Positions 1,071-15,832 of a stretch of DNA of 15,832 bases are shown one piece after another. Location of the stretch: the IMG/VR virus record IMGVR_UViG_2734482542_000002; one strand, given 5' to 3'. Origin of the DNA: a virus (lineage: Duplodnaviria; Heunggongvirae; Uroviricota; Caudoviricetes). Position 1 is the stretch's first letter, and each line of letters starts with the position of its first letter. The translations under genes were made by a program, and so were the position numbers. The notes under the pieces were generated by a model. That model ran no database searches, was not told where the DNA came from, and saw only the letters and a program-made list of their open reading frames with translations.

Positions 1071-1158
1071 TGGTTTGATGGCGTAGATGCACGTTGTGAC
1101 ATGTAGATGATAATTATTATCATTTTGCGGGTCCTTTCCGGCGATCCGACAGGTTACG

Positions 1159-1170
1159 GGGCGGAAGGCG
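1159..1170. other. cosN: cosN cohesive-end site, variant 12-mer GGGCGGAAGGCG
   Basis: Flanks (GATCCGACAGGTTACG on the left, CGCGGGTTTTCGCTATTTATGA on the right) match lambda cos. The 12-mer differs from canonical lambda GGGCGGCGACCT in its last six bases. Confidence 0.75.
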
Positions 1171-1330
1171 CGCGGGTTTTCGCTATTTATGACAATTTTC
1201 CGGTTTAAGGCGTTTCCGTTCTTCTTCGCCGTAACCTAATGTTTTTATTTAAAACACCCCCTGAAAAGAAAGGAAACGACAGGTGCTGAAAACGGGCTTT
1301 TTGGCCTCTGTCGTTTCCTTTCTCTGTTTT
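1171..1330. promoter_or_regulatory. cosB: cosB terminase small-subunit binding region (R3, R2, R1 sites and intervening AT-rich IHF-type segment)
   Basis: R1-like GTCGTTTCCTTTC at 1310-1322 and its exact inverted copy at 1268-1280 (R2-like). An imperfect direct copy CGTTTCCGTTCTTC at 1211-1224 (R3-like). AT-rich segment 1238-1258 between R3 and R2. Arrangement matches lambda cosB. Confidence 0.8.
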
Positions 1331-1893: not shown

Positions 1894-5574
<3,681 letters not shown>

Positions 5575-5594
<20 letters not shown>

Positions 5595-6627
5595 TCTCCC
5601 GCATATTGCCAGCATGGCTTTTAATGAGCCGCTGATGCTTGAACCCGCCTATGCGCGGGTTTTCTTTTGTGCGCTTGCAGGCCAGCTTGGGATCAGCTGC
5701 CTGACGGATGCAGTATCCGGCGACAGCCTGACTGCCGGAGAGGCACCCGCGGCGCTGGCGTTATCCGGTGATGATGACGGACCACGACAGGCCCGCAGTT
5801 ATCAGGTAATGAACGGCATCGCCGTGCTGCCGGTGTCCGGCACGCTGGTCAGCCGGACGCGGGCGCTGCAGCCGTACTCGGGGATGACCGGTTACAACGG
5901 CATTATCGCCCGTCTGCAACAGGCTGCCAGCGACCCGATGGTGGACGGCATTCTGCTCGATATGGACACACCGGGCGGAATGGTGGCGGGAGCATTTGAC
6001 TGCGCTGACATCATCGCCCGTGTGCGTGACATAAAGCCGGTATGGGCGCTGGCCAATGACATGAACTGCAGCGCAGGTCAGCTGCTTGCCAGTGCCGCCT
6101 CCCGGCGTCTGGTCACGCAGACCGCCCGGACAGGCTCCATCGGCGTCATGATGGCTCACAGTAATTACGGCGCTGCACTGGAGAAACAGGGCGTGGAAAT
6201 CACGCTGATTTACAGCGGCAGCCATAAGGTGGATGGCAACCCCTACAGCCATCTACCGGATGATGTCCGGGAAACATTGCAGTCCCGGATGGATGCAACC
6301 CGCCGGATGTTTGCACAGAAGGTGTCGGCATATACCGGCCTGTCCGTGCAGGCTGTGCTGGATACCGAGGCTGCAGTGTACAGCGGTCAGGAGGCCATTG
6401 ATGCCGGACTGGCTGATGAACTTGTTAACAGTACCGATGCGATCACCGTCATGCGTGATGCACTGGATGCACGTAAATCCCGTCTCTCAGGAGGGCGAAT
6501 GACCAAAGAGACTCAATCAACAACTGTTTCAGCCACTGCTTCGCAGGCTGACGTTACTGGCGTGGTGCAAGCGACGGAGGGCGAGAACGCCAGCGCGGCG
6601 CAGCCGGACGTGAACGCGCAGATCACC
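5575..6627 (+). CDS. C: Head maturation protease / minor capsid protein gpC (S49 ClpP-like family), 3' end lost in assembly gap
   Basis: Begins at GTG 5575 (VTAELRNLPHIASMAFNEPLMLEPAYARVFF matches lambda C N-terminus) and overlaps the B 3' end by 20 nt as in lambda. The frame is open to the N-run at 6628. The ORF-track start at 5440 is an upstream extension inside B. Confidence 0.9.
6289..6627 (+). CDS. nu3: Scaffolding protein gpNu3, in-frame internal start within C, 3' end lost in assembly gap
   Basis: ATG at 6289 (MDATRRMFAQKVSAYTGLSVQ) in the C reading frame corresponds to the lambda Nu3 start under collinearity with lambda coordinates. Confidence 0.7.
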
Positions 6628-6849
6628 NNNNNNNNNNNNNNNNNNNNNNNNNNNNNNNNNNNNNNNNNNNNNNNNNNNNNNNNNNNNNNNNNNNNNNNNN
6701 NNNNNNNNNNNNNNNNNNNNNNNNNNNNNNNNNNNNNNNNNNNNNNNNNNNNNNNNNNNNNNNNNNNNNNNNNNNNNNNNNNNNNNNNNNNNNNNNNNNN
6801 NNNNNNNNNNNNNNNNNNNNNNNNNNNNNNNNNNNNNNNNNNNNNNNNN
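6628..6849. other. Assembly gap (222 N)
   Basis: Run of n characters; removes the C/Nu3 C-terminus and the C-D junction. Confidence 0.99.
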
Positions 6850-6851
6850 TT

Positions 6852-7184
6852 ATGACGAGCAAAGAAACCTTTACCCATTACCAGCCGCTGGGCAATAGTG
6901 ACCCGGCTCATACCGCAACCGCGCCCGGCGGATTGAGTGCGAAAGCGCCTGCAATGACCCCGCTGATGCTGGACACCTCCACCCGTAAGCTGGTTGCGTG
7001 GGATGGCACCACCGACGGTGCTGCCGTTGGCATTCTTGCGGTTGCTGCTGACCAGACCAGCACCACACTGACGTTCTACAAGTCCGGCACGTTCCGTTAT
7101 GAGGATGTGCTCTGGCCGGAGGCTGCCAGCGACGAGACGAAAAAACGGACCGTGTTTGCCGGAACGGCAATCAGCATCGTTTAA
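6852..7184 (+). CDS. D: Head decoration protein gpD
   Basis: 110 aa starting [48 protein letters not shown], matching lambda D. Confidence 0.96.
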
Positions 7185-7204
7185 CTTTACCCTTCATCAC
7201 TAAA

Positions 7205-7226
7205 GGCCGCCTGTGTGGCTTTTTTT
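7205..7226 (+). terminator. D-E intergenic stem-loop followed by T7 tract (terminator-like or mRNA-stabilising hairpin)
   Basis: GCCGC (7206-7210), loop CTGT, GTGGC (7215-7219) with one G-U wobble, then TTTTTTT (7220-7226). A second T7 run lies just before the E start. Confidence 0.3.
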
Positions 7227-7239
7227 ACGGGATTTTTTT

Positions 7240-8265
7240 ATGTCGATGTACACAACCGCCCAGCTGCTGGCGGCAAATGAGCAGAAATTTAAGTTTGATC
7301 CGCTGTTTCTGCGTCTCTTTTTCCGTGAGAGCTATCCCTTCACTACGGAGAAAGTCTATCTCTCACAAATTCCGGGACTGGTAAACATGGCGCTGTACGT
7401 TTCGCCGATTGTTTCCGGTGAGGTTATCCGTTCCCGTGGCGGCTCCACCTCTGAATTTACGCCGGGATATGTCAAACCCAAGCATGAGGTGAATCCGCAG
7501 ATGACCCTGCGTCGCCTGCCGGATGAAGATCCGCAGAATCTGGCGGACCCGGCTTACCGCCGCCGTCGCATCATCATGCAGAACATGCGTGACGAAGAGC
7601 TGGCCATTGCTCAGGTCGAAGAGATGCAGGCAGTTTCTGCCGTGCTCAAGGGCAAATACACCATGACCGGTGAAGCCTTCGATCCGGTTGAGGTGGATAT
7701 GGGCCGCAGTGCGGCGAACAACATCACACAGTCCGGCGTCACGGAGTGGAGCAAGCGTGACAAGTCCACGTATGACCCGACCGACGATATCGAAGCCTAC
7801 GCGCTGAACGCCAGCGGTGTGGTGAATATCATCGTGTTTGACCCGAAAGGCTGGGCGCTGTTCCGTTCCTTCAAAGCCGTCAAGGAGAAGCTGGATACCC
7901 GTCGCGGCTCTCATTCCGAGCTGGAGACAGCGGTAAAAGACCTGGGCAAAGCGGTGTCCTATAAGGGAATGTATGGCGATGTGGCCATCGTCGTGTATTC
8001 CGGACAGTACGTGGAAAACGGCGTCAAAAAGAACTTCCTGCCGGACAACACGATGGTGCTGGGGAACACTCAGGCTCGCGGTCTGCGCACCTATGGCTGC
8101 ATTCAGGATGCGGACGCACAGCGCGAAGGCATTAACGCTTCTGCCCGTTACCCGAAAAACTGGGTGACCACCGGCGATCCGGCGCGTGAGTTCACCATGA
8201 TTCAGTCAGCACCGCTGATGCTGCTGGCTGATCCTGATGAGTTCGTGTCCGTTCAACTGGCGTAA
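7240..8265 (+). CDS. E: Major capsid protein gpE
   Basis: 341 aa from ATG 7240 (MSMYTTAQLLAANEQKFKFDPLFLRLFFRESYPF), matching lambda E. The ORF-track start at 7213 is an upstream extension. Confidence 0.97.
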   Translation: MSMYTTAQLLAANEQKFKFDPLFLRLFFRESYPFTTEKVYLSQIPGLVNMALYVSPIVSGEVIRSRGGSTSEFTPGYVKPKHEVNPQMTLRRLPDEDPQNLADPAYRRRRIIMQNMRDEELAIAQVEEMQAVSAVLKGKYTMTGEAFDPVEVDMGRSAANNITQSGVTEWSKRDKSTYDPTDDIEAYALNASGVVNIIVFDPKGWALFRSFKAVKEKLDTRRGSHSELETAVKDLGKAVSYKGMYGDVAIVVYSGQYVENGVKKNFLPDNTMVLGNTQARGLRTYGCIQDADAQREGINASARYPKNWVTTGDPAREFTMIQSAPLMLLADPDEFVSVQLA

Positions 8266-8306
8266 TCATGGCCCTTCGGGGCCATTTTCTCTCTGTGGAG
8301 GAGTTC

Positions 8307-8705
8307 ATGACGAAAGATGAACTGATTGCCCGTCTTCAGGAGCTGGGTGAGCAATTGAACCGCGATGTCAGTTTGACGGGAACGAAAGAAGAACTGGCGC
8401 TTCGTGTGGCAGAGCTGGAAGAAGAGCTTGATGACACGGATGAAACTGCCGGTCAGGACACCCCTCTCAGCCGGGAAAATGTGCTGACCGGGCATGAAAA
8501 TGAGGTGGTATCAGCGCAGCCGGATACCGTGATTCAGGATACGGCTGAACTGGTCACGGTCGTGGCACTGGTGACGCTGCATACTGATGCACTTCACGCC
8601 ACGCGGGATAAACCTGTGGCATTTGTGCTGCCGGGAACGGCGTTTCGTGTCTCTGCCGGTGTGGCAGCCGAAATGACAGAGCGCGGCCTGGCCAGAATGC
8701 AATAA
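8307..8705 (+). CDS. FI: DNA packaging / head assembly accessory protein gpFI
   Basis: 132 aa from ATG 8307 (MTKDELIARLQELGEQLNRDVSLTGTKEELALRVAELEEELDDTDE), matching lambda FI. The ORF-track start at 8268 is an extension. Confidence 0.93.
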   Translation: MTKDELIARLQELGEQLNRDVSLTGTKEELALRVAELEEELDDTDETAGQDTPLSRENVLTGHENEVVSAQPDTVIQDTAELVTVVALVTLHTDALHATRDKPVAFVLPGTAFRVSAGVAAEMTERGLARMQ

Positions 8706-8716
8706 CGGGAGGCGCT

Positions 8717-9070
8717 GTGGCTGATTTCGATAACCTGTTCGATGCTGCCATTGCCCGCGCCGATGAAACGATACGCGGGTACATGGGAACGTCAGCCACC
8801 ATGACATCCGGTGAGCAGTCAGGTGCGGTGATACGTGGTGTTTTTGATGACCCTGAAAATATCAGCTATGCCGGACAGGGCGTGCGCGTTGAAGGCTCCA
8901 GCCCGTCCCTGTTTGTCCGGACTGATGAGGTGCGGCAGCTGCGGCGTGGAGACACGCTGACCATCGGTGAGGAAAATTTCTGGGTAGATCGGGTTTCGCC
9001 GGATGATGGCGGAAGTTGTCATCTCTGGCTTGGACGGGGCGTACCGCCTGCCGTTAACCGTCGCCGCTGA
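8717..9070 (+). CDS. FII: Head-tail connector protein gpFII
   Basis: 117 aa from GTG 8717 (MADFDNLFDAAIARADETIRGYMGTSAT), matching lambda FII. Confidence 0.94.
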   Translation: MADFDNLFDAAIARADETIRGYMGTSATMTSGEQSGAVIRGVFDDPENISYAGQGVRVEGSSPSLFVRTDEVRQLRRGDTLTIGEENFWVDRVSPDDGGSCHLWLGRGVPPAVNRRR

Positions 9071-14208: not shown

Positions 14209-14534
14209 AAACCTTCCGCTGGAAAGTGAAACCCGGTATGGATGTGGCTTCGGCCCCTTCTGTAAGAAAGGTGCGCTTTGGTGATGGCTATTCCCAGCGA
14301 GCGCCTGCCGGGCTGAATGCCAACCTGAAAACGTACAGCGTGACGCTTTCTGTCCCCCGTGAGGAGGCCATGGTACTGGAGTCGTTTCTGGAAGAGCACG
14401 GGGGCTGGAAAGCCTTTCTGTGGACGCCGCCTTATGAGTGGCGGCAGATAAAGGTGACCTGCGCAAAATGGTCGTCGCGGGTCAGTATGCTGCGTGTTGA
14501 GTTCAGCGCAGAGTTTGAACAGGTGGTGAACTGA
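14205..14534 (+). CDS. M: Minor tail (tail tip) protein gpM
   Basis: 109 aa starting MKTFRWKVKPGMDVASAPSVRKVRFGDGYSQRAPAGLNANLKTY, matching lambda M. ATGA overlap with H. Confidence 0.96.
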   Translation: MKTFRWKVKPGMDVASAPSVRKVRFGDGYSQRAPAGLNANLKTYSVTLSVPREEAMVLESFLEEHGGWKAFLWTPPYEWRQIKVTCAKWSSRVSMLRVEFSAEFEQVVN

Positions 14535-15121
14535 TGCAGGATATCCGGCAGGAAACACTGAATGAATGCACCCGTGCGGAGCAGTCGGCCAGCGTGGTGC
14601 TCTGGGAAATCGATCTGACAGAGGTCGGTGGAGAACGTTATTTTTTCTGTAATGAGCAGAACGAAAAAGGTGAGCCGGTCACCTGGCAGGGGCGACAGTA
14701 TCAGCCGTATCCCATTCAGGGGAGTGGTTTTGAACTGAATGGCAAAGGCACCAGTACGCGCCCCACGCTGATGGTTTCTAACCTGTACGGTATGGTCACC
14801 GGGATGGCGGAAGATCTACAGAGTCTGGTCGGCGGAACGGTGGTCCGGCGTAAGGTTTACGCCCGTTTTCTGGATGCGGTGAACTTCGTCAACGGAAACA
14901 GTGACGCCGATCCGGAGCAGGAGGTGATCAGCCGCTGGCGCATTGAGCAGTGCAGCGAACTGAGCGCGGTGAGTGCCTCTTTTGTACTGTCCACGCCGAC
15001 GGAAACAGATGGCGCTGTTTTTCCGGGACGTATCATGCTGGCCAACACCTGCACCTGGACCTATCGCGGCGATGAGTGCGGTTATCACGGTCCGGCGGTC
15101 GCGGATGAATATGACCAGCCA
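14534..15121 (+). CDS. L: Minor tail (tail tip) protein gpL, 3' end lost in assembly gap
   Basis: Starts MQDIRQETLNECTRAEQSASVVLWEIDLTEVGGERYFFCNEQNEKGEPVTWQ, matching lambda L. The last visible residues (ANTCTWTYRGDECGYHGPAVADEYDQP) include the cysteine-containing segment; the frame runs into the N-run. One-base overlap with the M stop (TGATG). Confidence 0.93.
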
Positions 15122-15387
15122 NNNNNNNNNNNNNNNNNNNNNNNNNNNNNNNNNNNNNNNNNNNNNNNNNNNNNNNNNNNNNNNNNNNNNNNNNNNNNNN
15201 NNNNNNNNNNNNNNNNNNNNNNNNNNNNNNNNNNNNNNNNNNNNNNNNNNNNNNNNNNNNNNNNNNNNNNNNNNNNNNNNNNNNNNNNNNNNNNNNNNNN
15301 NNNNNNNNNNNNNNNNNNNNNNNNNNNNNNNNNNNNNNNNNNNNNNNNNNNNNNNNNNNNNNNNNNNNNNNNNNNNNNNNNNNNNNN
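15122..15387. other. Assembly gap (266 N)
   Basis: Run of n characters; removes the L 3' end, the L-K intergenic region and the K 5' end. Confidence 0.99.
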
Positions 15388-15832
15388 CCGGAGGCGTATT
15401 TCCGTATGTCGCCGGAAGACTGGCTGCAGGCAGAGATGCAGGGTGAGATTGTGGCACTGGTCCACAGCCACCCCGGTGGTCTGCCCTGGCTGAGTGAGGC
15501 CGACCGGCGGCTGCAGGTGCAGAGTGATTTGCCGTGGTGGCTGGTCTGCCGGGGGGCGATTCACAAGTTCCGCTGTGTGCCACATCTTACCGGGCGGCGC
15601 TTTGAGCACGGGGTGACGGACTGTTACACGCTGTTCCGGGATGCTTACCATCTGGCGGGGATTGAGATGCCGGATTTTCATCGTGAGGATGACTGGTGGC
15701 GTCACGGTCAGAATCTCTATCTGGATAATCTGGAGGCCACAGGGCTGTATCAGGTGCCGTTGTCAGCGGCGCAGCCGGGCGATGTGCTGCTGTGCTGTTT
15801 TGGTTCATCGGTGCCGAATCATGCCGCCATTT
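15388..15832 (+). CDS. K: Tail tip assembly protein gpK (JAMM/MPN plus NlpC/P60-type domains), partial at both ends
   Basis: Open frame from the gap to the window end: PEAYFRMSPEDWLQAEMQGEIVALVHSHPGGLPWLSEADRR...GVTDCYTLFRDAYHLAGIEMPDF...PGDVLLCCFGSSVPNHAAI. Contains a JAMM-type H-x-H-x7-S-x2-D motif and a Cys-containing NlpC/P60-like segment; matches lambda K as I recall it. Absent from the ORF track because it has no stop in the window. Confidence 0.9.

Follow-up and report, generated by a model that had tools for sequence, protein, structure and literature searches.

The AAGGCG right-half allele of the lambda-type cosN in a lambda-like prophage

Lambda-type cosN sites and the cos region of the window

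The right half of cosN, the site at which terminase nicks the DNA of lambda-like phages, is already documented as naturally variable and functionally tolerant. Lambda-like phages often differ at bp 7-12 (Feiss et al. 2015, PMC4669245): relative to lambda, N15 and phiD326 have other bases at bp 9 and 12, and Gifsy-1 has other bases at bp 8, 9 and 11 (PMC4669245). A further natural allele, GGGCGGCGCGCT, was described for mEp213/LLS (PMC12315714). Mutations in the right half showed minimal phenotype, the G2C change lowered the yield about 10-fold while the symmetric C11G change was without phenotype, and bp positions 7-12 are not maintained by selection (PMC4669245). This asymmetry of cosN was ascribed to the closeness of the right half to cosB, where R3-bound TerS positions TerL, and the terminases containing the lambda TerL (lambda and N15hy4) gave equal yields on cosN-lambda and cosN-N15 (PMC4669245). 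When the cohesive ends were mismatched at 2 of 12 positions, the viable yield went down four-fold, and cosQ was described as a highly conserved 7-bp site (PMC4669245).

The window, that is, the whole stretch of 15,832 nucleotides which was analysed, carries GGGCGGAAGGCG at 1159-1170, where the lambda equivalent is GGGCGGCGACCT. The alignment of window 1100-1260 with phage DE3 (a lambda derivative), PhiR46_1, YDC107_1 and PhiR70_1 confirmed the register, and GGGCGGAAGGCG fell onto the 12 bases labelled 'cos site' in the DE3 record, which read GGGCGGCGACCT there. The initial annotation, made from the letters alone, had stated the lambda 12-mer and had called the site cosN in an unambiguous register between lambda-like flanks, and the alignment bore it out on each of these points: the immediate flanks are identical to lambda (left, ...GGTTACG / ...CCGACAGGTTACG; right, CGCGGGTTTTCGC... 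/ CGCGGGTTTTCGCTATTTATGA...). Compared to the lambda CGACCT, the right half reads AAGGCG, with changes at bp 7 (C>A), 8 (G>A), 9 (A>G), 10 (C>G) and 12 (T>G), while bp 1-6 and C11 are unchanged. An altered cohesive-end sequence had thus been rightly claimed, as 5 of 12 bases differ from lambda; to call the downstream half entirely different was a slight overstatement, since C11 is kept and five of the six bases are changed. The 401 bp around the 12-mer showed 94.5% identity to lambda, and the chance of 5 changes in a pre-specified 6-base block was about 6 x 0.05^5, or about 2e-6. Because five of six adjacent bases are changed within such surroundings, the block is a true difference and not a part of scattered divergence.

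The coordinates of cos and of the terminase genes are collected in Table 1. The 7-mer GGGTCCT, which we take to be cosQ from the lambda literature, stands at an offset of -30 relative to the 12-mer. The R3, R2 and R1 boxes were recovered by a repeat finder as direct and inverted repeats, with the lambda spacing and upstream of the small-terminase gene. Both nick sites keep their CG dinucleotides (ACG/GGGCGGAAGGCG/CGC), fitting the description in PMC4669245, and the GC content of the 12-mer is 10/12, as in lambda. Differences of Nu1 from lambda were found at K48R, A75T and L132I, none of them within the N-terminal recognition helix (residues 17-24), and gpA differs at 4 of 641 residues (T151S, D185E, L404R and T466I).

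Table 1. Features of the cos region and the terminase genes in the window
Feature	Position	Strand	Remarks
cosQ (GGGTCCT), packaging-termination element about 30 bp upstream of the nick site	1129..1135	+	identical to lambda/DE3
cosN, 12-mer with CG at each predicted nick (CG/GGGCGGAAGGCG/CG)	1157..1172		nick positions assigned by homology
cosN left half GGGCGG	1159..1164	+	same in lambda, 21, N15, HK225 and PhiR phages
cosN right half AAGGCG	1165..1170	+	variant block; all six positions polymorphic in nature
cosB R3 (AGGCGTTTCCGTTCTT), critical Nu1 (TerS) binding site	1208..1223	+	lambda bp 50-65 (PMC9026076); identical to lambda
cosB R2, inverted R box	1268..1283	-	inverted repeat of the R3 core; identical to lambda
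cosB R1, R box	1308..1323	+	direct repeat of the R3 core; identical to lambda
Nu1, terminase small subunit, 181 aa	1348..1893	+	ORF; 98.4% identical to lambda
A, terminase large subunit gpA (ATPase and endonuclease), 641 aa	1868..3793	+	ORF; 99.4% identical to lambda

Two further features of the window were observed. Between cosN and R3, an A>C difference is found at 1193 (cos bp 35; ATGACAATTTT), a position assigned to the I2 IHF site in the phage 21 record, and this haplotype occurs in 10 IMG/VR contigs. Masked runs of N cover 6628-6849 and 15122-15387, and the second of them takes out the last part of gene L together with the first part of K and yields a spurious 319-aa 'L' ORF at 14534-15493.

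Among the closest described systems, lambda shares position, spacing, flanks, cosQ, GGGCGG, nick CGs and R3/R2/R1 with the window and has the terminase identities of Table 1; the differences lie in bp 7, 8, 9, 10 and 12 and in the two-fold symmetry of the 16-bp cosN, which is 10/16 bp in lambda and 8/16 in the window. The cosN shared by N15, phiD326 and HK225 (GGGCGGCGTCCG) departs from lambda only in the right half, like that of the window, both alleles have G at position 12, and the N15-type cosN was cut equally well by lambda-type terminase in experiment (PMC4669245). Two positions (9 and 12) are changed in N15 and five in the window allele, and the simple cosB and the TerS specificity of N15 are its own, in contrast to the lambda cosB and Nu1 of the window. 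The left half is likewise kept and the right half changed in mEp213/LLS (PMC12315714) and Gifsy-1 (PMC4669245), but with other bases than AAGGCG and with more divergent head and terminase modules. The differences of the window 12-mer from lambda are confined to bp 7-12, as in the N15/phiD326, Gifsy-1 and mEp213 variants. The right-half variants tested in the laboratory carry one to few changes, and AAGGCG changes 5 of 6 positions, including the nick-adjacent bp 12. Based on these comparisons and on the distribution described below, AAGGCG is very probably a functional, natural allele of the lambda-type cosN, with nick positions and a functionality of this prophage that we infer.

Occurrence and backgrounds of the AAGGCG allele

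The variability of cosN was determined by a free scan, in which the left flank CGGTGGGGTGGCCTGCCACG was fixed, only CGC was required at the right and the 12 bases were left free. In the 128 IMG/VR contigs obtained, positions 1-6 read GGGCGG in 128/128, and positions 7-12 were all polymorphic, with nine alleles that included AAGGCG (18 contigs) and CGACCT (2 contigs). A looser scan with one fixed left flank gave 16 right-half alleles. AAGGCG is one of the commoner right-half alleles. Vahanian et al., as cited in PMC12315714 and PMC9026076, are said to have devoted a survey to natural cosN variation in 2017, which reportedly also deals with the functional asymmetry of cosN, and the AAGGCG allele may already be tabulated there. 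A full-text literature search for the 12-mer or its reverse complement matched only two unrelated papers, which do not concern phages. Since the left half is invariant and the right half polymorphic, the block of the window lies in the known hypervariable half of cosN, and the pattern agrees with the published functional asymmetry (Feiss 2015, PMC4669245).

A 51-mer centred on the block (window 1140-1190) was used as megablast query with a 28-base seed, which cannot sit on the canonical lambda sequence. It matched about 159 of 5,426 complete E. coli genomes, 84 of them full-length at ≥96% identity and four at 100%; the 100% matches were four complete E. coli chromosomes, together with one plasmid, and came from unrelated studies. 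With the same query, 23 records of plasmids were matched, from E. coli, Shigella sonnei, E. albertii and E. fergusonii, and these plasmids are mostly about 46 kb in size and non-mobilizable. The two plasmids which were inspected, pAH01-1 and pRHBSTW-00124_4, are N15-like phage-plasmids carrying AAGGCG; a lambda-like head and tail module is combined in them with cI/Cro-like regulators, Q, RelE/ParE and a large replication protein of the RepA type, which is annotated in pAH01-1. The identical 12-mer is also present in the deposited complete phage genomes PhiR46_1 (listed host E. coli ECOR13) and YDC107_1 (Ravinvirus), in Escherichia sp. E1V33 and in E. coli strain 582, which has lambda-like cos regions at four places and the variant at one only. 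PhiR46_1 was taken as a propagated phage from its GenBank metadata alone, and the literature search retrieved no publication describing the PhiR phages, PhiR46_1 included. The elements of about 46 kb, namely pAH01-1, pRHBSTW-00124_4 and PhiR46_1/YDC107_1, were observed to form an N15-like group whose cos-terminase-head-tail DNA is about 96-97% identical to the window and whose backbone comprises RepA, cI/Cro, Q, RelE/ParE and a DNA methylase.

In IMG/VR, an exact scan for GGGCGGAAGGCG followed by CGCGGGTTTTCGC gave 78 contigs, and the window is 100% identical to the contig IMGVR_UViG_2667527914_000011. Among the 120 lambda-type cos sites listed from IMG/VR, 117 (about 97%) were canonical and 3 had AAGGCG, which is consistent with the proportion of about 3% in complete genomes. 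Deposited records and IMG/VR contigs beginning exactly at the variant 12-mer were sought as evidence of virion ends, and none was found. Canonical lambda-type cos sequences with matching flanks were also seen in the assemblies of Raphidiopsis brookii D9, Aeromicrobium sp. PE09-221, Archangium violaceum Cb vi76 and an Alicyclobacillus fastidiosus 'plasmid', three of the four being identical to lambda over the 68 bases shown; they probably stem from contamination with lambda or cosmid vector DNA or from a spike-in.

The sequences around the allele were mosaic. Within the TACG-flanked set, the variant is joined to 22 haplotypes of the spacer between cosQ and cosN, and at least five unrelated families of left flank were found, for example ...GATCCGACAGGTTACG, ...GGCAGGCTACG, ...CCAGAACGTTACG, ...GGTGGGGTGGCCTGCCACG and ...GACCTGAGCTCTCACG. 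To the right of the variant at least three types of cosB occur, with the lambda R3, the GGGGAAAATCATGTCGG type and the GAGCATTTTAAGGGGACTGG type, and in the one GAGCATTTTAAGGGGACTGG-type contig examined (L066) the TerS beside the variant is 35% identical to Nu1. Through these backgrounds, ACG stands directly before the 12-mer in 78/78 variant contigs, and GGGTCCT (cosQ) lies 29-31 bp upstream of it in 77/78. The many spacers, left flanks and cosB types point to an old allele which has been shuffled by recombination and not to a recent lesion, so that the mosaic indicates an allele that is apparently old and freely recombining. In the contig L066 itself (IMGVR_UViG_2645728091_000007), the region 4116-9000 holds the AAGGCG cosN and a divergent TerS-like gene with lambda-like head and tail genes after it and no large terminase gene, which makes it a prophage that has been rearranged or, alternatively, a satellite-like element.

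For a functional AAGGCG site, the following course of events is proposed. Nu1 would bind the unchanged cosB (R3, R2, R1), with IHF at I1, placing gpA, and gpA would nick between G(-1) and G1 on the top strand and between positions 12 and 13 on the bottom one, which would generate the 12-nt 5' overhangs GGGCGGAAGGCG and CGCCTTCCGCCC. The bottom-strand nick would be set by the Nu1-R3 anchor and not by the reading of bases 7-12, so these bases would be under little or no sequence constraint and may have diverged or been exchanged among lambda-like phages, while the left half, the nick CGs and cosQ would stay fixed. The allele would thus alter the annealing partners of the ends and not the specificity of terminase. 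Because this fits the established picture, in which the cosB-bound small terminase subunit positions the large subunit and the cosB-proximal half of the nick site is therefore free to vary, it carries little mechanistic weight. For the detection of cos, tools for annotation and methods of end prediction which seek GGGCGGCGACCT would miss the site in about 3% of the E. coli genomes with lambda-type cos regions, and also in a group of N15-like phage-plasmids.

Cohesive-end compatibility of the variant and lambda-type ends

Based on their sequences, the variant ends would be fully complementary within the phage and would match lambda-type ends at bp 1-6 and 11 only. With the DNA nearest-neighbour parameters, matched variant ends gave -18.6 kcal/mol compared with -19.0 kcal/mol for lambda, and a lambda end with a variant end would pair over the six left-hand bp only, at about -9.5 kcal/mol. 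The window ends are therefore predicted not to anneal stably with lambda ends, and the virion DNA of AAGGCG phages in general is predicted not to anneal or ligate to lambda-type ends. If a hybrid concatemer contained one cos of each type, a chromosome packaged from it would have ends mismatched at 5 of 12 positions, which makes AAGGCG a natural 5 of 12 mismatch partner, while the genetics of cohesive-end mismatch has so far covered 2 of 12 only.

It is conceivable, if unlikely, that the right half serves as a six-base compatibility barcode which sorts the lambda-like phages and N15-like phage-plasmids that share a terminase, with AAGGCG as a common group. If this were true, ends of different groups could not cyclise efficiently, recombinants of co-resident prophages would be penalised, and occasional repair of mismatched ends would create chimeric alleles. 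Similarly unlikely is the proposal that the right half is under diversifying selection rather than simply free of constraint, its alleles forming groups of compatible cohesive ends in which hybrids of co-resident lambda-like phages are at a disadvantage. The presence of at least 16 alleles between strongly conserved flanks would fit such selection, as would the weak annealing of a lambda end with a variant end, over 6 bp at -9.5 against about -19 kcal/mol, the four-fold cost in yield already caused by 2 of 12 mismatches (PMC4669245), and the frequent occurrence of several lambda-like cos regions in E. coli genomes, such as the four in strain 582. However, six unconstrained bases that drift neutrally between constrained flanks give the same pattern, a canonical allele at about 97% of the 120 contigs listed is unlike strong frequency-dependent selection, and the rare chimeric alleles suggest that hybrids survive.

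Three rare alleles, AGACCT (PhiR70_1, 3020-3031), AAGGCT (contig L201) and CGACCG (contig L074), look like chimeras of CGACCT and AAGGCG that were each converted at the position nearest a nick. From these three sequences we infer that they may be the products expected when heteroduplex ends of lambda and AAGGCG are repaired by nick translation. The left flank of PhiR70_1 and L201 matches flanks found with the variant allele, and their R3 form, AAGGTG, was otherwise seen beside canonical-type cosN alone (CGACCT, with AGACCT at one locus); the flanks of both would fit an origin from chromosomes with mismatched cohesive ends.

Terminase linkage, integrity of the site and origin of the block

In its interpretation, the initial annotation had gone beyond the cosN assignment, the register and the altered end, all of which stood, and had offered a specificity co-evolved with gpA, a packaging defect or a sequencing or assembly artefact as explanations of the block, none of which was upheld by the comparisons below. 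To weigh the first of them, 32 variant-linked and 33 canonical-linked lambda-type terminases were compared. No Nu1 or gpA residue was fixed between these two classes, one gpA protein and four Nu1 proteins were identical across them, and the gpA of the window is 99.7% identical to gpAs adjoining canonical cosN. The proposed comparison of gpA with lambda gave the same answer, as none of the 4 residues that differ out of 641 separates variant-linked from canonical-linked terminases. The largest differences in residue frequency between the classes were found for gpA N9D and S21A (0.41) and T466I (0.38), and the weak associations of N9D and S21A, at the junction of the Nu1 C-terminus and the gpA N-terminus nearest cos, are those expected from physical linkage.

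It is accordingly very unlikely that the variant right half requires a matching change in the gpA endonuclease and that the two form a new cosN-terminase specificity pair, although the concentration of the change inside the nicking site, the two-fold symmetry reduced from 10/16 to 8/16 bp and the haplotype association of N9D, S21A and T466I would be in its favour. Besides the shared proteins and the lack of a class-fixed residue in the two sets, the allele is also present with other cosB and TerS types, and the lambda and N15hy4 terminases, both with the lambda large subunit, showed no cosN specificity (PMC4669245). The comparative evidence suggests that no matching change of the large subunit would be needed for the AAGGCG allele.

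Many lambda-like prophages of E. coli are defective, and the window has a private L404R change in gpA, near the catalytic-region residue D401. A lesion of cosN which inactivated cos and left this prophage a packaging-defective relic is nevertheless highly improbable. The block is kept in 78 IMG/VR contigs, about 159 complete genomes, 23 plasmids and two deposited phage genomes, whereas a decaying site would not stay base-for-base identical across many flanks; the reading frames of Nu1 and A were intact in 32 of the loci examined, and every other subsite of cos is intact. A packaging defect due to the block finds no support, in view of its presence in deposited complete phage genomes and in many independent elements with intact terminase genes and of the tolerance of bp 7-12 to changes in published genetics (PMC4669245). 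An artefact of sequencing, assembly or masking, to which the two masked N runs of the window might point, is refuted, as these runs are distant from cos, the 51-mer was matched at 100% in the four chromosomes and the plasmid of unrelated studies, an IMG/VR contig shows 100% identity to the wider window, and the same block recurs with different flanks in many independent assemblies.

The L404R change was observed at codon 404 (window 3077-3079), in the conserved AGIDSQLDRYE motif and three residues past D401. This position is L in lambda, in N15 and in 66 of the 69 lambda-type gpAs compared, and R404 was confined to the window and two IMG/VR contigs (L151 and L155), both 100% identical to the window over the overlap. 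The change could affect the endonuclease, and the terminase of this prophage might be impaired by it, a matter unrelated to cosN.

Two local origins of the block were considered and rejected. The left edge of R3 (lambda bp 49-54; window 1207-1212) also reads AAGGCG, but a copy templated by R3 was rejected as a general origin: the allele occurs with cosB types which do not have the 6-mer, canonical cosN occurs with AAGGCG in R3, and the 6-mer is found 7 times in the window compared with 10.5 expected. Inversion of the 6-bp block was no more parsimonious than substitution or exchange of alleles, as the reverse complement AGGTCG matches AAGGCG at 4/6 positions. A shared 6-mer was seen again in contig L197 (IMGVR_UViG_2657244962_000004), where the cosN right half is AAGCGT and the left edge of R3 is CAAGCGT instead of AAGGCGT; this haplotype was absent from the 5,426 E. 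coli genomes, and the sharing may be a coincidence or a draft-assembly error.

A 17-nt inverted repeat with 82% complementarity was also observed between 1151-1167 (AGGTTACGGGGCGGAAG), which comprises the left flank of cosN and the start of the variant block, and 1221-1237 (CTTCTTCGCCGTAACCT), just past R3; it is weaker in lambda. As a structural element it was rejected, since CCGTAAC is unchanged in relatives whose left flank differs (GGCTACG, among others), with no covariation, and the repeat is probably due to chance.
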